The position numbers were made by a program, and so were the translations under genes. Under the pieces are notes generated by a model. It did no database searches, was not told the origin of the DNA, and was given only the letters and a program-made list of their open reading frames with translations. A stretch of DNA of 43,865 nt from a phage. The DNA lies in assembly GCA_032298335.1 (NCBI GenBank), contig GCA_032298335.1_4702.1, one strand, 5' to 3'. Positions 6,212 through 43,865 of the stretch are shown one piece after another (positions within the stretch are counted from its first letter, which is position 1; the number at the start of each line of letters is the position of its first letter).

Positions 6212-8200
6212 ATGGCTATTATTCAGAATGTACCGTGTCCTGCCTGTCAAAAGAATGGACATGATATTACTGGCAACCATCTTATGATATTTGAGGATGG
6301 CGCTGGTTACTGTAACCGTGGTCACTTCCATGATAATGGGAAGCCTTATTACCATAAGCCAGAGGGTGGTATCGAGATAACCGAATTGCCTATTACTGGC
6401 AATATCAAATATACACCTTCTCAATTCAAAGAAATGGAGAAGGAAGGGAAGATAAGCGACCCTAAGCTACGCGCCATCGCACTTGGTGGTATGCGTATGA
6501 AAGACCGTTGGGAGGTTATGAATGAGCAAGAAAGGGCAGACCAAGAAGCAGAGTGGAAACTTGATGTTGAATGGTTCCTCACGCTTAAGCGTAAGAACCT
6601 TGTATCCCGTCACATTCGAGGTGACATCGCAGCAATGTACGATGTGCGCGTTGGACACGATGAAGAGGGAAGAGTCAACCGTCACTATTATCCACGATAT
6701 GAAAAGGGTGTGCTTGTTGGAGCAAAATGCCGGACGTTGCCGAAGGATTTTAAGTTCGGACACCTAGGTAAACTCTTTGGTATGCAAGATCTTTTCGGTA
6801 TGAATACTTTGTCTCACGTGTTAGACAAGGGGAGGCGAAAGGATTGCTTGCTTATTGTAGGCGGTGAACTTGATGCACTAGCAGCGCAGCAGATGCTCCT
6901 TGATTCTGCCAAGGGTACTAAGTGGGAAGGACAACCATATCATGTGTGGTCTGTCAACAAGGGCGAGTCTTGCCTTGAAGAGATAGTGCAGAACCGTGAG
7001 CATATCGCCCAATTCAAGAAGATTATATGGGGTTTTGATGGAGATGAGGTAGGGCAGAAGCAGAATCAGCAAGCGGCTCGCCTGTTTCCTGGCAAATCCT
7101 ATATCCTTGAATACCCCTCTGGTTGCAAAGATGCTAACAAGGCATTGATGGCTGGCAAGGCCAAAGAGTTTGTTGATGCATGGTTTAATGCCAAGTCATC
7201 TGATGAAGTCTTTGGTAGCCAGATTAAATCTATCGCATCTCAAAGGGATAAGCTCAAGGCTGCACGTCCAGAGCAAGGACTATCATGGCCTTGGCCTAAG
7301 CTGAACAAGGTAACGCTAGGTATTCGTAAGAACCAACTTATCATTGTAGGCGCAGGCTCTGGTGTAGGTAAGACTGAGTTCCTTCGTGAAGTAGTTAAGC
7401 ACCTCATTGAAGAACACGGTGAATCTGTAGGCATCATTTCTACAGAAGACCCGATGGTCAAGGTGTCCCGTGCTTTTATCGGCAAGTGGATTGATAAGCG
7501 TATTGAGTTACCGCCAACCAACGACCCTAAAGAAGACGGATACCGTGAGGTGTTCGACTACACCGAGGAAGAAGCTAACGCCGCCATTGATTATGTAGCT
7601 GATACAGGTAAGCTGTTTGTAGCTGACCTAGAGGGTGACTATTCGATGGAAAAGGTAGAGCAAACTTGCCTAGAGTTTGAGGCTATGGGCATTTCTAATA
7701 TCATCATTGATAACTTAACGGGGATTAAATTAGATGAGCGTGCTTTTGGTGGGAAGGTTGGTGCACTTGATGAATGCGTCAAGCGGATTGGTACTATCAA
7801 AGACCGACACCCGGTTACTATATTCCTTGTATCACACCTTACACGTCCTCCGGCAAACCGTACCCAACACGAAGAAGGTGGCGAAGTTATCCTTTCTGAC
7901 TTCCGAGGCTCAGGCGCTATCGGATTCTGGGCATCTTACGCCTTGGGGATTGAGCGTAATACAAGAGCTGAAACGCTTGACGAAAGGACTACCACGTACA
8001 TCTCTTGTGTCAAAGACCGCGACCAAGGAATATTTTCCGGTACTCGTATAATGCTTAAAGGTGATATTGCTACTGGTCGATTACGTGAACCAGAGCAAAG
8101 ATCTCGACCGTTTGATACTGGTGCTCCAAAAGAACAAACTGTACCAGAAGAAGTAGTGGATAAAGGAGGATTTATTGCTGACGAAGTTGAAGAGTTTTGA
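6212..8200 (+). CDS. Bifunctional DNA primase/helicase (T7 gp4-like)
   Basis: N-terminal zinc-ribbon CPACQ...CNRGHFH; Walker A GAGSGVGKTEF; helicase motifs IIIDNLTG and VSHLTRPPANRTQHEEGGEVILSDFRGSGAIG paralleling T7 gp4; acidic C-terminus ending EEF. Confidence 0.95.
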   Translation: MAIIQNVPCPACQKNGHDITGNHLMIFEDGAGYCNRGHFHDNGKPYYHKPEGGIEITELPITGNIKYTPSQFKEMEKEGKISDPKLRAIALGGMRMKDRWEVMNEQERADQEAEWKLDVEWFLTLKRKNLVSRHIRGDIAAMYDVRVGHDEEGRVNRHYYPRYEKGVLVGAKCRTLPKDFKFGHLGKLFGMQDLFGMNTLSHVLDKGRRKDCLLIVGGELDALAAQQMLLDSAKGTKWEGQPYHVWSVNKGESCLEEIVQNREHIAQFKKIIWGFDGDEVGQKQNQQAARLFPGKSYILEYPSGCKDANKALMAGKAKEFVDAWFNAKSSDEVFGSQIKSIASQRDKLKAARPEQGLSWPWPKLNKVTLGIRKNQLIIVGAGSGVGKTEFLREVVKHLIEEHGESVGIISTEDPMVKVSRAFIGKWIDKRIELPPTNDPKEDGYREVFDYTEEEANAAIDYVADTGKLFVADLEGDYSMEKVEQTCLEFEAMGISNIIIDNLTGIKLDERAFGGKVGALDECVKRIGTIKDRHPVTIFLVSHLTRPPANRTQHEEGGEVILSDFRGSGAIGFWASYALGIERNTRAETLDERTTTYISCVKDRDQGIFSGTRIMLKGDIATGRLREPEQRSRPFDTGAPKEQTVPEEVVDKGGFIADEVEEF

Positions 8201-8663
8201 GGCAGCAGGATATACCATCAAGGAGGATGGTACTATCCTTAACCCTAAAGGTGTAATACTTAAACCGAGCCAATCAGGAAGGAAATTAAAGTATTTATAT
8301 GTAAGTTGGAGACATCAAGGAAGAAGAGTAACAGAGCTTGTACACAGATTGGTTGCTAAGAAGTACATACCCAACCCACACAGTTTACCAGAAGTTCATC
8401 ATAAAGACTTTAACCCTCTTAATTGTCATAAAGACAATCTTGAATGGACAGATGGTAAGACTAATTGTGAGTATAGTTATGCAAGGGTAGAAGCTGCACT
8501 TGCACGTCATGCTACTTTATTGTCACCTGATGGCATTAAGTACGACATATTTAATGTTCGTAAATTCTGCCGCGAACATGGCCTCAATCCACCTAGTGTA
8601 TTTGAGGTGCTTAGTGGTAAACGGAAGTCACATAAAGGGTGGACTATTTACCGGACACTATAG
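8175..8663 (+). CDS. HNH homing endonuclease
   Basis: HRLVA...NP...PEVHHKDFNPLNCHKDNLEWTDGKTN HNH motif; AT-rich relative to neighbours; overlaps the helicase 3' end; paralog of the gene at 43214. Confidence 0.85.
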   Translation: MLTKLKSFEAAGYTIKEDGTILNPKGVILKPSQSGRKLKYLYVSWRHQGRRVTELVHRLVAKKYIPNPHSLPEVHHKDFNPLNCHKDNLEWTDGKTNCEYSYARVEAALARHATLLSPDGIKYDIFNVRKFCREHGLNPPSVFEVLSGKRKSHKGWTIYRTL

Positions 8664-8666
8664 AAG
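8646..8666 (+). promoter_or_regulatory. Phage RNA polymerase promoter (ATTTACCGGACACTATAGAAG)
   Basis: Near-consensus promoter; the HNH gene's TAG stop (8661-8663) ends on the predicted +1 G. Confidence 0.8.
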
Positions 8667-8776
8667 ACATTATTCGTAAGCAAGGGTTGAAGGGTCTTCA
8701 CATCTTAAATGGTGAAGAATTACTGTACCTACCTATCGTTACTGAAGAAACCTACGTGAATATCTAAGAGTTAATC

Positions 8777-8995
8777 ATGACTAAAGTATTAATTTATATG
8801 CGTGGACCTCATAAATGCTATGCAGTTGTAGCACCAAATGGTGTTAAGCCCTATAGTACTTCAAAAGGATTGGCATTAATAGGTGCTAGTAGTAGTGCAA
8901 GTTTCCAAATGGAACTTTTTGGTCATTGGACTGAATGGCAATTCCGTGAGGATTTTAAAGTCATTGGCAGCTTCATGGTGAAACATGCAGAATAA
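8777..8995 (+). CDS. Hypothetical protein (72 aa)
   Basis: ORF with no recognisable motif. Confidence 0.5.
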   Translation: MTKVLIYMRGPHKCYAVVAPNGVKPYSTSKGLALIGASSSASFQMELFGHWTEWQFREDFKVIGSFMVKHAE

Positions 8996-35659: not shown

Positions 35660-37557
35660 TGGCTAAGGCAAGAGAATCACAAGCGGAGGCTCTTGCCAGA
35701 TGGGAGATGCTACAGGAGTTACAGCAGACCTTTCCTTTCACAGCGGAAGGTTTGCTTCTCTTTGCAGATACAGTTATTCATAACTTAATTGCAGGCAACC
35801 CTCATCTGATTCGTATGCAGGCGGATATCTTGAAGTTCCTATTTTACGGACACAAGTACCGCCTCATCGAAGCGCCTCGTGGTATCGCTAAGACAACACT
35901 ATCAGCAATCTATACGGTATTCCGTATTATTCATGAACCGCATAAGCGTATCATGGTTGTGTCCCAAAACGCCAAGCGAGCAGAGGAAATCGCAGGTTGG
36001 GTAGTTAAAATCTTCCGTGGCTTAGACTTTCTTGAGTTTATGCTGCCGGATATCTACGCTGGGGACCGTGCATCCGTTAAGGCGTTTGAGATTCATTACA
36101 CCCTACGTGGTAGTGATAAGTCTCCTTCTGTATCCTGTTACTCAATCCAAGCAAGTATGCAGGGTGCTCGTGCTGATATTATTCTAGCGGATGACGTAGA
36201 GTCGATGCAGAATGCTCGTACGGCAGCGGGCCGTGCCTTGCTTGAGGAACTGACTAAGGAGTTTGAATCTATCAACCAGTTTGGGGATATCATTTACCTT
36301 GGTACACCTCAGAACGTAAACTCTATCTACAACAACCTACCTGCTCGTGGTTACTCTGTTCGTATCTGGACTGCGCGTTACCCTTCAGTAGAGCAAGAGC
36401 AATGTTATGGCGACTTCCTTGCACCTATGATTGTGCAGAATATGAAGGACAACCCAGCACTGCGCTCAGGGTACGGGTTGGATGGTAATAGTGGTGCACC
36501 TTGTGCCCCTGAAATGTATGATGATGAAGTCCTGATTGAGAAGGAAATCTCTCAGGGTGCTGCTAAGTTCCAGCTTCAGTTCATGCTTAACACTCGCATG
36601 ATGGATGCTGACAGATACCCATTACGCCTGAACAATCTAATCTTCACCTCGTTTGGTACAGAGGAAGTCCCTGTGATGCCTACGTGGAGTAATGATTCCA
36701 TAAACATCATTGGTGATGCACCTAAGTATGGTAACAAGCCTACGGATTTCATGTACAGACCTGTAGCTCGCCCATACGAATGGGGTACTGTCTCCCGCAA
36801 GATTATGTATATTGACCCTGCGGGTGGCGGTAAGAATGGGGATGAGACGGGTGTGGCTATCGTATTCCTGCACGGCACATTCATTTACGTGTATCAGTGC
36901 TTCGGTGTGCCGGGTGGATACCGCGAATCGTCCCTGAATCGCATTGTGCAGGCCGCAAAGCAGGCGGGTGTTAAAGAGGTATTCATTGAGAAGAACTTTG
37001 GTCATGGCGCGTTTGAGGCGGTAATTAAGCCGTACTTTGAACGAGAGTGGCCTGTAACGCTGGAAGAGGATTACGCCACCGGACAGAAAGAGTTGCGTAT
37101 CATTGAGACGCTGGAGCCGCTCATGGCAGCCCATAGGCTTATCTTCAATGCAGAGATGGTGAAGTCAGACTTTGAGTCGGTACAGCACTATCCGCTTGAA
37201 CTACGCATGTCCTACAGTCTTTTCAATCAAATGTCGAACATAACGATTGAGAAGAACAGCCTCCGGCACGATGACCGCCTAGACGCCCTGTATGGCGCTA
37301 TACGGCAATTAACTTCTCAGATAGACTATGACGAGGTTACACGGATTAATCGCCTCAGAGCGCAGGAGATGCGAGATTACATCCATGCTATGAACACACC
37401 TCATCTACGCAGGGCAATGCTATATGGGGATTACGGTACTGAGCGAAGAGTGACCAACACTTCCGTAGCGATGCAGCAGCGAGTTTACGGGCAGAACTAC
37501 CGAAATAAATCGGCAAGCAGAAATACACTTTCTGCAAGGATTTCAAGGACTTATTAA
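35659..37557 (+). CDS. Terminase large subunit (gp19-like)
   Basis: 632 aa; ATPase N-terminal half and nuclease C-terminal half expected from size and position; ATG overlaps the small-subunit stop. Confidence 0.9.
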   Translation: MAKARESQAEALARWEMLQELQQTFPFTAEGLLLFADTVIHNLIAGNPHLIRMQADILKFLFYGHKYRLIEAPRGIAKTTLSAIYTVFRIIHEPHKRIMVVSQNAKRAEEIAGWVVKIFRGLDFLEFMLPDIYAGDRASVKAFEIHYTLRGSDKSPSVSCYSIQASMQGARADIILADDVESMQNARTAAGRALLEELTKEFESINQFGDIIYLGTPQNVNSIYNNLPARGYSVRIWTARYPSVEQEQCYGDFLAPMIVQNMKDNPALRSGYGLDGNSGAPCAPEMYDDEVLIEKEISQGAAKFQLQFMLNTRMMDADRYPLRLNNLIFTSFGTEEVPVMPTWSNDSINIIGDAPKYGNKPTDFMYRPVARPYEWGTVSRKIMYIDPAGGGKNGDETGVAIVFLHGTFIYVYQCFGVPGGYRESSLNRIVQAAKQAGVKEVFIEKNFGHGAFEAVIKPYFEREWPVTLEEDYATGQKELRIIETLEPLMAAHRLIFNAEMVKSDFESVQHYPLELRMSYSLFNQMSNITIEKNSLRHDDRLDALYGAIRQLTSQIDYDEVTRINRLRAQEMRDYIHAMNTPHLRRAMLYGDYGTERRVTNTSVAMQQRVYGQNYRNKSASRNTLSARISRTY

Positions 37558-37576
37558 TTACTGGACACTATAGAAG
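37556..37576 (+). promoter_or_regulatory. Phage RNA polymerase promoter after the terminase gene
   Basis: AATTACTGGACACTATAGAAG; overlaps the terminase stop. Confidence 0.85.
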
Positions 37577-37649
37577 GAAGGCCCAGATAATAAGAGAAAT
37601 AATAGGTAATATATAGGTTAACCTAGGTTATATAGGTATGCCTTAGTAT

Positions 37650-37669
37650 AGGTGTACTCCTGTACACCT
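37650..37669. repeat. Hairpin-forming inverted repeat AGGTGTAC-TCCT-GTACACCT
   Basis: 8-bp perfect stem with a 4-nt loop in the AT-rich leader after the promoter, followed by a tandem TACCTTAC x2. Confidence 0.7.
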
Positions 37670-37721
37670 TATTCATTACTACCTTACTACCTTACTATAT
37701 TTACATAATAGGAGAGAGACA

Positions 37722-37997
37722 ATGGCTAATGATTATAGTAGTCAACCATTAACAGGTAAGTCTAAGAGAAAGCAGGTACAACCTGTAAGTGAAGAACTAA
37801 TGCTTCCGGTAATCAAAAAAGAGGAAGCTAGTAAGAAAAGCAATGTCATTAATGATGCCACCAAATCAGGTAAACAGAAAGGGGCCATGGTGTGCCTTGA
37901 AGTGGAAGGTGTATTGAAGATTGCTATAGCGGTTGATGGCAAAGAAGATTCAGCGTGGAAGTTAGTAACAAGCGGACCAGCTGTTAACCCAGTTTAA
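37722..37997 (+). CDS. Small protein, paralog A (91 aa)
   Basis: Shares SGKQKGAMV ... IA(I/V)A ... SW core with the next ORF; good ribosome-binding site. Confidence 0.6.
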   Translation: MANDYSSQPLTGKSKRKQVQPVSEELMLPVIKKEEASKKSNVINDATKSGKQKGAMVCLEVEGVLKIAIAVDGKEDSAWKLVTSGPAVNPV

Positions 37998-38015
37998 GAT
38001 AAGGAGGAAGATTAC

Positions 38016-38309
38016 ATGGCTAAATATGGTACTACAGGTTCTGTTACTGGTCAGGCTTTTCGAGTAAAAGCAGTACAAACTATTGCAACGGCAATCCCTG
38101 TGCCTGTTGTTAAAGAAGCAGACCTTAAGAGTAAAGATCACCCTATCAACATCAAACACCTGTCAGGTAAGCAGAAAGGCGCAATGGTTGCTGTTGAGAG
38201 AGATGGCACAATCGTGCATATTGCTGTTGCACGTGGTAGTGAACCAACAGACTCTTGGGATGTAACTGGTATGGAAGAGGCCGCTGTCACTCCAGCAGGT
38301 AGAGATTAA
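38016..38309 (+). CDS. Small protein, paralog B (97 aa)
   Basis: Tandem paralog of 37722-37997; good ribosome-binding site. Confidence 0.6.
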   Translation: MAKYGTTGSVTGQAFRVKAVQTIATAIPVPVVKEADLKSKDHPINIKHLSGKQKGAMVAVERDGTIVHIAVARGSEPTDSWDVTGMEEAAVTPAGRD

Positions 38310-38653
38310 TGCTTAACAAATACTTCAAGCGTAAAGAGTTCGCTTGCCGTTGTGGGTGCGGTACATCCACTGTTGATGCTGAATTACTACAGGTAGTCAC
38401 AGATGTGCGTGAGCACTTTGGTTCTCCTGTAGTTATCACTTCGGGGCACCGCTGTGCTAAGCACAATGCTAATGTAGGAGGAGCTAAGAACTCCATGCAT
38501 CTTACTGGTAAGGCTGCTGACATTAAGGTGTCTGGTGTTGGCCCAATGGAGGTACGTGCATACCTCTGCAATAAATACCATGATAAGTACGGTATTGGTG
38601 CTTATCCTACTTTTACCCATATCGACGTTAGAGATAACAAAGCAAGATGGTAA
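38309..38653 (+). CDS. Endolysin, peptidase M15-type cell-wall peptidase
   Basis: 114 aa; KEFACRCGCG ... SGHRC ... H ... GKAADI ... H pattern typical of zinc D-Ala-D-Ala carboxypeptidase-like phage endolysins. Confidence 0.8.
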   Translation: MLNKYFKRKEFACRCGCGTSTVDAELLQVVTDVREHFGSPVVITSGHRCAKHNANVGGAKNSMHLTGKAADIKVSGVGPMEVRAYLCNKYHDKYGIGAYPTFTHIDVRDNKARW

Positions 38654-39227: not shown

Positions 39228-39248
39228 ATTTACTGGACACTATAGAAG
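39228..39248 (+). promoter_or_regulatory. Phage RNA polymerase promoter upstream of the tailspike genes
   Basis: Exact consensus ATTTACTGGACACTATAGAAG. Confidence 0.85.
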
Positions 39249-41313: not shown

Positions 41314-43026
41314 ATGCTTCAAAGATTAAGTGCTTACTTGGTGAAGTACAAGAGTAAACTAACAGGTACTATTGAGCGCCTGCTATCTGATAAACTATCG
41401 GATACAATAGATGTTGCGGATTTTGGAGTTACTCCATCTTCCAATGACAACAGGCAAGCACTTCAAGCTGCGTTCAATGCAGTCAGAGTGTTAGGCGGTG
41501 GCACTGTATTAGTCACTAAAGCTGGAAAATACAAACTCAGTGGTACTGTTGAGATATTTGCTAATACACACTTCAAGGTTGCTAAAGGTGTAACATTTGT
41601 ACGTGACTACGAAACAGGAGATACGCTATTCAGATTATCACAAGGGCAAGCTAGTAATGTAACAGTCAGTGGAGGTATCTATGAAGGCAATGGTCACACT
41701 AAGGGAGATACACCTTTTGTAGTATTTGCATCTACTAGTAATAATGATTTGAAGTTTGAAGGCATAACAGTTAACAATGTAGTGGACTACCACGCCATAG
41801 ATTTAGCAGATTGGAACAACGTAGTTATTCGTGATTGTAAATTCCTAGGTTTTAAGAATACAGGCAGTCGTAACTTCTCAGAGGCTATACAGTTAGACCC
41901 AGGTCTTATTACAGTTGGTCACTATGTACAGTCAAGTGGTATGCTGGTGGAGAATTGCTATGCTGGTCCAAACACAGAATCAGGGTTTGGAGGTTATGGT
42001 GCACTAATTGGAAATCACGCCTCAGCTTACGGTGTACAGGACAACAATATCCGTATCTTGAATTGCACTACAGATGGTGCTCTCTTTGCAGGTGTACGTG
42101 TATTTAACTGGAAAAACTGGACAGTGCGTGGTTGCACATTTAGGAACTCTAATGCAAGAGGTGTCCATGTTACACCTGTCTCATCTCAGACTAAACCGCA
42201 GGGTACTCGACAAGGTAGTATTGTAGATTGCACTTTTGATGGCGTAAGGACACCAGTGCTAATTGCTGCACCATCTTGGCCTTTTACTGATATTAGTGAC
42301 ATTTGGCATGACCATATTGAAATTTCTAATAATACTATGATCCTCACAGAGGATGCATCCTATGGTGTAGATGCAAGGTGGTGTAAGAATTTAATTGTAA
42401 AAGGTAATACAGGCTCTGGCGGCTTAGGTTTAATCGGTTTACGCTTTGGGACAAAATACCACATCGAAGGTAATACTTGGGAGAACGGAAGAGGTAGTGG
42501 GATTTGGTTAGGTGAGTCTGATGCTACTACATTCATTGGTACTGGATTATCGGGCGAAGGTGTACTTAGTCGTAATATCCTCTCTAAATTAGGGCAATAT
42601 GGTATTCATGTAAACTGCAAGGTTGGCGGTCTAGTGATTAAGGCTAATAATATGAAGGAAGTATCTACAGCTGAAGCAGGTATGCACTTCATTAGCATAG
42701 ACACAGGAGCTAACAACATCCTAGTAGAGGGTAATATTGGAGTAGATGGAGAAAGCCCTAACAAGCCAAGCCTTGGTATTCGTGTTACTTCTTCTTGTTC
42801 CAATATTAAACTCATTGGCAATGATTGCTATGGTACACAGGCGCCTCAGAATAACCAAGGAGTTGGTTCTAGTACGGTGATTGTTTATGGACTAAATGGC
42901 AACCCTACAACTTTAGGCGTAGGTGCACCTGTAGGCTCTTTAGCAACTGATATCAATGGTTCTGGTGGTAGTACATTGTACGTTAAAGAATCTGGTACAT
43001 CTGCTCAAGGTTGGGTTGCAAAGTAG
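41314..43026 (+). CDS. Tailspike 2, right-handed beta-helix (pectate-lyase-like) putative depolymerase
   Basis: 570 aa; N-terminal VADFGVTPSSNDNRQALQAAFNAV ... GGGTVLV typical of pectate-lyase-fold tailspikes; repeated beta-helix rungs; no T7 gp17-like tail-attachment domain. Confidence 0.8.
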   Translation: MLQRLSAYLVKYKSKLTGTIERLLSDKLSDTIDVADFGVTPSSNDNRQALQAAFNAVRVLGGGTVLVTKAGKYKLSGTVEIFANTHFKVAKGVTFVRDYETGDTLFRLSQGQASNVTVSGGIYEGNGHTKGDTPFVVFASTSNNDLKFEGITVNNVVDYHAIDLADWNNVVIRDCKFLGFKNTGSRNFSEAIQLDPGLITVGHYVQSSGMLVENCYAGPNTESGFGGYGALIGNHASAYGVQDNNIRILNCTTDGALFAGVRVFNWKNWTVRGCTFRNSNARGVHVTPVSSQTKPQGTRQGSIVDCTFDGVRTPVLIAAPSWPFTDISDIWHDHIEISNNTMILTEDASYGVDARWCKNLIVKGNTGSGGLGLIGLRFGTKYHIEGNTWENGRGSGIWLGESDATTFIGTGLSGEGVLSRNILSKLGQYGIHVNCKVGGLVIKANNMKEVSTAEAGMHFISIDTGANNILVEGNIGVDGESPNKPSLGIRVTSSCSNIKLIGNDCYGTQAPQNNQGVGSSTVIVYGLNGNPTTLGVGAPVGSLATDINGSGGSTLYVKESGTSAQGWVAK

Positions 43027-43037
43027 TAGGAAGTTGA

Positions 43038-43187
43038 ATGCCATTAATCAAATCAGTTAAGCAAAGTGCTGTACGCCAGAACACAGAAGAGCTTATTCAA
43101 TCAGGACGTGACCCTAAGCAAGCTTATGCCATTGCCAAGGATGTTCAACGTCGTGCCTTGAAGAAACCTTCTGCATCTTCTGCGTAA
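43038..43187 (+). CDS. Small basic hypothetical protein (49 aa)
   Basis: Short ORF with an AGGAAG ribosome-binding site. Confidence 0.35.
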   Translation: MPLIKSVKQSAVRQNTEELIQSGRDPKQAYAIAKDVQRRALKKPSASSA

Positions 43188-43213
43188 GCAGGTTAATATC
43201 TTAGGAGGTAATT

Positions 43214-43675
43214 ATGGAAGTTTGGAGGCCTATTGCTGGTATACCAGATTACATGGTTTCCTCCTTTGGTCGTGTTAGATCTCATAAAAGAGGTAAGGTT
43301 ACTATACTAAACCCTCCGCACGACAAAGGGGGTTATCGTAATGTTGTGCTACGTGTTAATGGTGAAAAGATAAATCGCAAGGTACATAGGCTTGTGGCAG
43401 AGGCTTTCTTACCTAATCCTCACGGTTTACCTCAAGTAAATCACAAGGATGAAGTAAGAGACAATAATCATGTAAGTAATCTGGAGTGGTGTGATTGTGC
43501 ATACAACGTAGATTACTCTCAAGCAGCTACTTATACTGTGATGTGCCCTAAAGGTAATATCTTAGTAGTAAGGAATGTGGCTAAGTTTTGTAGGGAAAAC
43601 GGATTAAGCAGTGGTTCTTTTACAGATATGCTTAAGGGGAGACGTAAGCAACATAAGGGTTATCGCTTAGTGTAA
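43214..43675 (+). CDS. HNH homing endonuclease (second copy)
   Basis: HRLVAEAF ... NP ... PQVNHKD ... NLEW HNH motif; C-terminal FCRENGL ... KG(R)RKQHKG block shared with the 8175-8663 protein; AT-rich. Confidence 0.85.
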   Translation: MEVWRPIAGIPDYMVSSFGRVRSHKRGKVTILNPPHDKGGYRNVVLRVNGEKINRKVHRLVAEAFLPNPHGLPQVNHKDEVRDNNHVSNLEWCDCAYNVDYSQAATYTVMCPKGNILVVRNVAKFCRENGLSSGSFTDMLKGRRKQHKGYRLV

Positions 43676-43865
43676 TACTTAGTGAGAGGGCTATACATGC
43701 CAAGTGGAAAATTTGATATGTATATGCGTCAAGTGTCTCGCCCTCGCCCTCGCCGGGTTGCCCCCCATAGGGTGGCCTGAGGGAATCCGTCTTCGACGGG
43801 CAGGGCTGATGTACTCCTTGCCTAGTACAAGGGAGGCGGAGGGAACGCCTAGGGAGGCCTAGGAA

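Follow-up and report, generated by a model that had tools for sequence, protein, structure and literature searches.

A predicted free-standing I-HmuI-type HNH homing endonuclease gene beside the right terminal repeat of a Vectrevirus genome

The DNA analyzed here, referred to throughout as the window, is a phage contig of 43,865 nucleotides (GenBank assembly GCA_032298335.1, contig GCA_032298335.1_4702.1). Megablast searches with both of the regions considered below against 50,697 phage records identify it as a member of the genus Vectrevirus, within the K1-5/SP6-like Autographiviridae (subfamily Molineuxvirinae). About 110 relatives were matched in this collection, nearly all of them Escherichia phages of the same genus, including K1-5, K1E and their relatives. 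The right end of the window is matched best by LL11 (MH729818) and vB_Ec-G9 (PQ433351), and the gene order of the window is that of LL11. Ten SP6-type phage promoters are present in the window, all on the plus strand.

The right end begins with the second tailspike gene (41314..43026), which precedes a conserved 49-aa gene on the plus strand (43038..43187; phrog_2423) that is gene 48 of K1-5 and SP6. The gene under study, designated HNH-R, follows on the plus strand at 43214..43675; it encodes 153 amino acids, opens with ATG and closes with a TAA stop codon at 43673-43675. A Shine-Dalgarno sequence, AGGAGG, can be read on the same strand at 43203..43208, 5 nt upstream of the ATG, and the LL11 record carries an annotated ribosome-binding site at the equivalent place. 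Downstream of the stop codon, a 24-nt spacer leads to a variant pre-repeat element, CCAAGTGGAAAATTTGATATGTATATGCGTCAAGTG(TC), at 43700..43737 (plus strand), which was recognized by comparison with genomes that lack the gene and is the putative homing-site region. The right direct terminal repeat comes next, represented by its first 128 bp (43738..43865), and the window ends inside it. Alignment with gene-less relatives delimits a mobile cassette at 43205..43737 (plus strand), composed of the ribosome-binding site, HNH-R, the spacer and the variant element.

Comparison with K1-5 defines the terminal repeat. In K1-5 the repeat measures 234 bp: bases 1-234 of the record, which opens TCGCCCTCGCCCTCGCC..., equal bases 44152-44385, and both copies begin TCGCCCTCGCC. 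The repeat ends ...GGGCTA at its 3′ side and the genome then reads TCTGTT, so that a T7-type ATCTGTT signal straddles the repeat end. The first base of the window maps about 30 bp beyond the right edge of the left repeat. HNH-R is the last gene of the genome, because the right repeat begins at 43738, 62 nt beyond its stop codon. A preliminary description of this DNA had placed the gene after the tailspikes and next to a GC-rich terminal region. This placement is correct, with the 49-aa gene lying in between: GC content downstream of HNH-R is 57%, against 45% for the whole window, and the GC-rich region corresponds to the initial 128 bp of the right direct terminal repeat.

Scans for a sigma-70 promoter and a terminator belonging to HNH-R scored no better than on shuffled sequence. 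The nearest phage promoter lies at 39229, and the gene is probably transcribed by read-through from this late promoter. No Rfam family, group I introns included, was detected anywhere in the window; hence HNH-R and a second HNH gene of the window, HNH-L, are both free-standing.

The identification of HNH-R as an HNH endonuclease gene, proposed in the preliminary description, is confirmed by the open reading frame, by Pfam and by its top PHROG, phrog_59 (HNH endonuclease, 1.4e-41). A NUMOD4 domain (PF07463) covers residues 2-47 with E=1.1e-13 and 51.6 bits against a cut-off of 23.4. The HNH_3 family (PF13392) is matched marginally, at 24.9 bits against a cut-off of 24.8, and the I-HmuI_NUMOD-like family (PF22083) reaches 23.8 bits, below its cut-off of 27. 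The only solved structure that matches HNH-R by sequence is I-HmuI of phage SPO1 (PDB 1U3E; E=2.9e-15). The match falls into two stretches, one covering NUMOD4 and the HNH motif and the other the C-terminal helix-turn-helix; the NUMOD4 domain aligns with residues 3-55 of I-HmuI, and residues 121-151 align with residues 137-167.

This alignment assigns N76, H77, N89 and N98 as the motif residues of HNH-R. H77, N89 and N98 correspond to H75, N87 and N96 of I-HmuI, and N76 takes the position of the metal ligand D74. H77 and N98 never vary across a family alignment of 67 members, and N76, N84, N85 and N89 hardly do. The AlphaFold2 model of HNH-R built on this alignment has a mean pLDDT of 91, and 1U3E is once more the sole significant match that Foldseek finds for it in the PDB (E=1.3e-12; 34% identity over 170 columns). 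The model contains helices at residues 122-128 and 133-140. A C-terminal helix-turn-helix is indicated together by the I-HmuI alignment, by these two helices and by the full-length match to 1U3E. The marginal HNH_3 score, the sub-threshold score of the C-terminal domain and the asparagine at the D74 position are caveats on the family assignment.

HNH-R shares with I-HmuI the three-part architecture and fold, and the catalytic histidine and two asparagines of I-HmuI are conserved in it. It combines an N-terminal NUMOD4 domain with an HNH ββα-metal motif, and its presence among relatives is patchy, with an empty site where it is missing. The two differ in genomic setting: I-HmuI resides inside a group I intron of a DNA polymerase gene, whereas HNH-R lies at the genome end, in the intergenic space that separates gene 48 from the terminal repeat, and is not intron-encoded. 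They also differ at the D74/N76 position, and the predicted target of HNH-R is unrelated to that of I-HmuI. Taken together, HNH-R is very probably a free-standing I-HmuI-type homing endonuclease gene, and its product a predicted enzyme.

Close copies of HNH-R are few. Among the 50,697 phage records, its DNA occurs in three, which represent two phages, vB_Ec-G9 (99.4% identity) and LL11 (98.1%). At the protein level, the vB_Ec-G9 copy (XKC20100.1, ‘HNH endonuclease’) is 100% identical and the LL11 copy (AXY85424.1, ‘putative HNH endonuclease; SPO1 like; NUMOD4 family’) 96.7% identical. Both copies lie at the same place, between gene 48 and the right terminal repeat, and represent the same gene with no difference of substance. 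The gene is an ordinary one, already annotated in both phages, and the window is another isolate or assembly with the same cassette. In IMG/VR, a search by protein for further close carriers returned only LL11 as close, the other loci being 42-52% identical. The next-closest relatives occupy other sites: ahead of the primase/helicase gene in another Vectrevirus, among structural genes, and behind a DNA polymerase gene. A homologue with 71% identity is found at the right end of L009, a more distant SP6-like phage whose RNA polymerase region is ~67% identical.

When gene 48, HNH-R and the repeat were used as a single query, 139 records were matched. For about 110 relatives the match covers gene 48 and breaks off at query base 167 (window 43204), and in many of the gene-less genomes it restarts near query base 665 (window ~43702). 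Relatives with the same flanks and no HNH-R, which the preliminary description had proposed to look for, are therefore abundant: the gene is absent from ~97% of relatives that have the same repeat and gene 48. Other sequences fill the same slot. K1-5, 6949 and EEc2 carry the small gene 49 (42 aa) in place of HNH-R, and KMB47, VEc3 and ULINTec6 carry other short sequences. Sem1-4 possess a different, 124-aa NUMOD4-HNH gene without the C-terminal domain, whose product shows 53% identity to HNH-R over 103 aa. Because the contents of the K1-5, KMB47 and Sem1 types differ, the slot is hypervariable, with at least two separate entries of homing-type genes.

The truncated Sem1-type copy at the same locus raises the question of whether HNH-R is itself a decaying, inactive relic of an old invasion, and five of the nine substitutions between HNH-R and the LL11 copy change an amino acid. 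This reading is nevertheless extremely improbable. The open reading frame is intact in all carriers found, namely 14 contigs with the exact protein together with LL11, vB_Ec-G9 and L035. The L035 copy is 95% identical in protein and 90% in DNA, and over this distance (dS=0.50, dN=0.028) dN/dS is 0.057; HNH-R is thus under purifying selection. The motif residues are moreover conserved, and the fold is predicted with confidence.

The second nuclease gene of the window, HNH-L, is located on the plus strand at 8175..8663. It is a free-standing HNH gene of the same family, with a TTG start and 162 codons' worth of protein (162 aa), and it matches HNH_3, the I-HmuI-like C-terminal family and phrog_59, as HNH-R does. 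Its start overlaps the final 26 nt of the primase/helicase gene. Homology with EC120, which lacks HNH-L, ends at window position 8092, and the helicase C-termini on the two sides differ, ...VPEEVVDKGGFIADEVEEF versus ...VPDLPDTIEETNFDEESEF. The EC120 helicase ends ...VPDLPDTIEETNFDEESEF, and its codons DLPDTIEE contain a phage promoter, TTTACCGGACACTATAGAAGA; this promoter is located within the 3′ end of the helicase gene in relatives without HNH-L. In the window, the last 36 codons of the primase/helicase gene are a replacement 3′ end (8093..8200, plus strand) that travels with the HNH-L cassette. HNH-L follows, and after it comes a remnant of the old helicase C-terminus, ...DYLPDTIED, within which the phage RNA-polymerase promoter TTTACCGGACACTATAGAAGA is found at 8647..8667 (plus strand).

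ULINTec6 presents an intact form of this arrangement of HNH-L and helicase remnant. Orthologues of HNH-L with 76-88% identity occupy the same site in PDP21P3, NIC06P3, ULINTec6, BP12B and GRNsp03, and most relatives lack the gene. HNH-L arrived independently of HNH-R; it is inserted in the 3′ end of the primase/helicase gene and brought with it a replacement of the sequence it interrupted. The insertion parallels that of HNH-R, since HNH-L is flanked by a replacement helicase C-terminus on one side and the remnant of the old one on the other.

The relationship between the two nucleases can be examined directly. BLASTP aligns HNH-R and HNH-L with 42% identity over 139 aa (E=3e-31). The aligned part takes in the HNH core and the C-terminal block that the preliminary description had ascribed to both. 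The similarity goes well beyond a generic HNH motif and amounts to homology over nearly the whole length. The N-terminal 20-30 residues are left unaligned by BLAST, and HNH-L has no significant NUMOD4 match, in partial agreement with the different N-terminus reported initially. In the family alignment, though, HNH-L keeps the Y and G of the NUMOD4 region and misses only the leading E-x-W motif. Its N-terminus is therefore a diverged and shortened version of the same NUMOD4 domain, and not another domain. Searches of the whole window with each protein by tblastn gave no third copy.

The shared architecture and the 42% identity could reflect a recent duplication within this genome, in which one of the two genes was derived from the other and subsequently gained an N-terminus and a target of its own; HNH-R orthologues are also among the better matches of HNH-L once its own orthologues are set aside. 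At the DNA level, however, the similarity of the two genes is limited to one 40-bp stretch at 75% identity, which leaves no trace of recent duplication. Measured on a single phmmer scale, the match of HNH-L to HNH-R reaches 91 bits, while all 120 listed database clusters score at least 105 bits; HNH-R thus has relatives closer than HNH-L in at least these 120 clusters and among many phage proteins. In a search of 5.8 billion proteins, the best non-orthologous relative among the matches listed is 71% identical (P0002), followed by a series at 42-52%. Proteins with 44-50% identity to HNH-R along the whole length, closer than the in-genome copy, occur among Autographiviridae in Erwinia phages Era103 and phiEa1H, Vibrio phage D530, Klebsiella phage K1-ULIP33 and Salmonella phage BP12B. 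The nearest relatives of HNH-R lie at the right end of other genomes (L009 at 71%, Sem1 at 53%) or at other sites.

The two genes also occur independently among genomes. LL11 and vB_Ec-G9 have HNH-R and no HNH-L orthologue, and the HNH genes that LL11 has elsewhere lie before the primase/helicase and before the DNA polymerase gene. Conversely, HNH-R is absent from PDP21P3, NIC06P3, ULINTec6, BP12B and GRNsp03, which carry the HNH-L orthologue. The closest relatives of HNH-L are those orthologues in other phages, so that HNH-R and HNH-L are not each other's closest relatives, as a recent paralogous pair would be. Recent duplication within this genome is accordingly very unlikely. The preliminary suggestion of intragenomic spread of a homing endonuclease stands as regards the type of gene; the intragenomic part does not, given the closer relatives outside this genome and the independent distribution. 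HNH-R and HNH-L are instead members of one large mobile family that occupies many sites in Autographiviridae. They may have split anciently within the Autographiviridae homing-gene pool, which would not be intragenomic spread in the phage studied here.

Evidence for recent movement comes from the comparison of the HNH-R cassette with its flanks. Fourteen contigs, taken from different samples and sequencing projects, encode exactly this 153-aa protein, in each case after gene 48. The tailspike alleles upstream of it in these contigs number at least five (507, 598, 570, 552 and 485 aa as called), and in five carriers the tailspike 3′ end cannot be aligned to that of the window. With the window as reference, the cassette (43205-43737) has diverged by 0-2% in most carriers, against 3-6% for gene 48 and the repeat, and is 3-10 times less diverged than its flanks. 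The difference is significant in nine of 12 carriers (Fisher p from 0.013 to 2e-6) and not significant in two near-identical carriers and L035; the carriers are phylogenetically non-independent, and the direction is consistent among them. The cassette is younger than its flanks, which is evidence of recent lateral spread.

The position beside the host-range module invites a further interpretation, in which the nuclease serves as a competition weapon that damages co-infecting relatives and drags linked markers, for example tailspike genes, into the progeny. Marker exclusion has been described for I-HmuI and I-HmuII. The strong purifying selection on HNH-R would agree with such a role, as would the occurrence of different tailspike alleles upstream of an identical gene. 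The same allelic differences among carriers nevertheless imply that linkage to the left is broken and that the tailspike genes are not co-inherited with HNH-R; even gene 48 has diverged further than the cassette. We consider this role distinctly unlikely, and it is a variant of the homing explanation that offers no alternative to the identity of HNH-R.

The sequence that abuts the repeat is highly conserved in genomes without the gene, where it conforms to a 37-bp consensus, CCAAAGTCAAAATTTTGATRTAGGCGTGTGTCAGCTC. This canonical element is identical in SP6 and KMB47, although SP6 belongs to another genus and its gene 48 is 85% identical. K1-5, 6949 and Sem1 differ from it at the R position only; one further substitution is present in VEc3, and in ULINTec6 several are clustered at the end nearest the repeat. 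A recognizably related form of the element occurs in Era103, where the record annotates the repeat boundary. The canonical element is retained in Sem1-type genomes beside an HNH gene of their own, a point to be set against the target assignment discussed below.

All carriers of HNH-R possess the variant CCAAGTGGAAAATTTGATATGTATATGCGTCAAGTG instead of CCAAAGTCAAAATTTTGATRTAGGCGTGTGTCAGCTC. The variant was not found without the gene: in IMG/VR it occurs only in LL11, and in the phage collection only in LL11 and vB_Ec-G9. In L009, the canonical element is interrupted after ...GGCGTGTGT / ...GATATAGGCGTGTGT by the ribosome-binding site of the gene, and a second, diverged full copy of the element follows the gene and abuts the repeat. 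The L009 gene is preceded by an ORF resembling gene 49. The insertion in this phage is thus inside the element itself.

The left edge of the cassette was also considered as a homing junction (43204|43205) and rejected. L035 retains gene 49 upstream of its HNH gene, between two TATCTTAG octamers, which points to a later deletion of gene 49 between these repeats. Since a deletion between the TATCTTAG octamers would leave the arrangement seen in the window, LL11 and vB_Ec-G9, the left edge in these genomes is secondary. The informative edge of the insertion is the right one, inside the pre-repeat element.

These observations make the ~37-bp element that abuts the repeat a likely candidate for the homing target of HNH-R, and the cassette would then carry a functional but diverged replacement of that element. 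I-HmuI nicks intron-containing and intron-less DNA alike. An enzyme of this type, acting on either allele of its site, does not need a variant target in carriers; the variant element may be no more than donor flank that was carried along, with the conserved repeat as the right-hand homology arm.

The preliminary description had offered a role in terminus processing as the other explanation for the gene. In such a role HNH-R would work with terminase at the concatemer junction, in the manner of HK97 gp74-type proteins in cos phages, or nick the DNA for duplication of the repeat. In favor of this idea, 62 nt separate the gene from the right terminal repeat, the sequence change specific to carriers affects the element bordering the repeat, and I-HmuI-type enzymes are nickases. 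HNH-R cannot, however, be required for the processing of ends, because ~97% of the relatives with the same repeat, pre-repeat element, gene 48 and packaging genes lack it. In LL11, eight genes and 5.6 kb separate the terminase genes (36233-38430) from the HNH gene (44079). No special hairpin is present in the pre-repeat region either: in analogy to the T7 right end, folding of the element gave z-scores of -1.5, 0.3 and 0.2, no better than shuffled sequence.

HNH proteins of the HK97 gp74 type are small, lack NUMOD4 and the helix-turn-helix, are encoded beside the terminase genes, and are conserved and required. HNH-R resembles them in that an HNH nuclease is encoded near a site of genome-end formation. 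It is unlike them in being sporadic among relatives that share the packaging system, in lying away from terminase and portal genes (5.6 kb from terminase in LL11) and in having the DNA-binding domains of a homing enzyme and a match to I-HmuI, not to the small terminase-associated type. A required role at the terminus thus finds no support in the sporadic presence, the I-HmuI-like family and the lack of terminase adjacency, and we regard a function as terminus-processing factor as highly improbable. The closeness of HNH-R to the terminus is real and is better read as the location of its homing site.

For the homing explanation, a series of steps can be proposed. In a mixed infection, HNH-R would nick or cut gene-less genomes close to the position of its own gene. 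The cut would be expected within or near ATAGGCGTGTGTCAGCTC, and only in the canonical element of gene-less DNA. The break would then be repaired from the carrier genome by the highly active T7-type recombination system, and this repair would copy in the cassette together with a short right flank. The enzymatic activity of HNH-R, its target site and its homing are inferred.

Free-standing nuclease genes of this kind are known from other phages. The T4 Seg and Mob nucleases and the HNH nickases of T5 are encoded by free-standing, intergenic, selfish genes that are patchy among close relatives, and those of T-even and T5-like phages are thought to spread by ‘intronless homing’ with co-conversion of the flanks. 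The cassette of HNH-R, being younger than its flanks, fits this pattern. In contrast to HNH-R, the Seg enzymes are GIY-YIG nucleases, and the targets in T-even and T5-like phages lie in coding genes, whereas the putative target of HNH-R is a non-coding element at the repeat boundary.

Within Vectrevirus, the other HNH genes belong, like HNH-R, to the phrog_59 / NUMOD4-HNH_3 family, and each is present in some genomes only. They are 42-53% identical to HNH-R and have different insertion sites: before the primase/helicase and DNA polymerase genes in LL11, inside the primase/helicase gene in ULINTec6, after it in the case of HNH-L, and at the right end in the Sem1 type. A preprint describes a Vectrevirus with additional HNH genes compared with K1-5 (10.64898/2026.09.20.752992). 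In the literature on LL11, on homing genes of Vectrevirus and on conserved sequences at SP6-type repeat boundaries, we found only general remarks on varying extra HNH genes. Only for the linkage of the gene to the variant element did we find no description, and this linkage offers a modest, testable lead.

HNH-R by itself matters little, as patchy HNH homing genes are routine in T7- and SP6-like phages. For annotation, it is useful as a marker of the hypervariable slot that separates gene 48 from the right terminal repeat, and it accounts for local mosaicism beside the host-range (tailspike) module of phages that are considered for therapy. If the pre-repeat element is the target, it would provide a handle on the specificity of the enzyme and on the bases of the element that the phage tolerates changing. 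A more far-reaching proposal is that the recognition site of HNH-R is this near-invariant, repeat-abutting element of SP6-like phages in its capacity as the place where the left end of the genome is cut from concatemers; we judge this unlikely. Were it true, homing would be aimed at a packaging-related cis element, and the nick could sabotage end formation in gene-less competitors or feed the duplication of the terminal repeat in carriers. A genome-end element as homing target, in place of a coding gene, would then be an unusual niche for a homing endonuclease.

The window breaks off 128 bp (43738-43865) into the 234-bp terminal repeat, and its start (region 1-300) falls about 30 bp past both the left repeat and the ATCTGTT pause signal. 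It therefore lacks about 106 bp of the repeat as well as the junction, and does not represent the complete genome. Such a gap is typical of trimmed short-read assemblies of phages with direct terminal repeats.

Directly abutting the right terminal repeat on its left side is an element of about 37 bp, located at 43700-43737 in the window, with counterparts in the comparison sequences of K1-5 (L010, 514-550), SP6 (L036, 363-396) and Era103 (L037, about 441-469). SP6 and some K1-5-type phages (KMB47) have exactly the same sequence for this element, which is near-identical in other K1-5-type phages and still recognisable in Era103. It presumably acts in cis when the ends of the genome are cut out of concatemers; no description of it was found in the searchable literature. 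A short motif, CTTAG(T/G), often in the form CCTTAGTG, is densely repeated near both ends of the genome and also builds the 8-bp repeats TATCTTAG, which are found at the 43205 junction of the window and at 1320-1500 in L035, an older lineage carrying HNH-R (the 153-aa HNH protein encoded at 43214-43675). Gene 49, the small right-end gene of K1-5-type phages, appears to have been deleted at these TATCTTAG repeats in the lineage of the window, LL11 and vB_Ec-G9.

The second tailspike gene (41314-43026; 570 aa, β-helix) was compared with L026, L027, L032, L033 and L035, and other carriers of the identical HNH-R cassette have unrelated alleles instead. K1-5 carries the K1 endosialidase at this position.

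Downstream of the primase/helicase, the window lacks a 227-aa gene present in relatives (EC120 8214-8897; CPT_LL11_014 in LL11). Its deletion fuses the phage promoter TTTACCGGACACTATAGAAGA (8647-8667) with a promoter-like repeat, TTTGCCGACACTATAGAAGA, situated near the end of the 227-aa gene (compared with 2151-2171 and 2842-2866 in L012, the EC120 sequence). What results is a chimeric 42-aa ORF (8639-8767) that combines the old helicase C-terminal remnant with the final codons of the deleted gene.

Other Vectrevirus genomes carry further HNH genes. vB_Eco_Sem1 (L003, 2793-3167), as well as Sem2, Sem3 and Sem4, encodes a 124-aa NUMOD4-HNH protein that is 53% identical to HNH-R and is without the C-terminal helix-turn-helix domain; the Sem1 genome retains the canonical pre-repeat element. 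This gene is a second, unrelated invasion of the right-end slot of HNH-R. In ULINTec6 (L013, 230-2996), a further HNH gene with the annotation 'phage intron' divides the primase/helicase gene into two parts, and an orthologue of HNH-L, the window's 162-aa HNH protein, additionally follows primase/helicase. Across the Vectrevirus pan-genome, HNH genes have thus inserted at five or more different sites.
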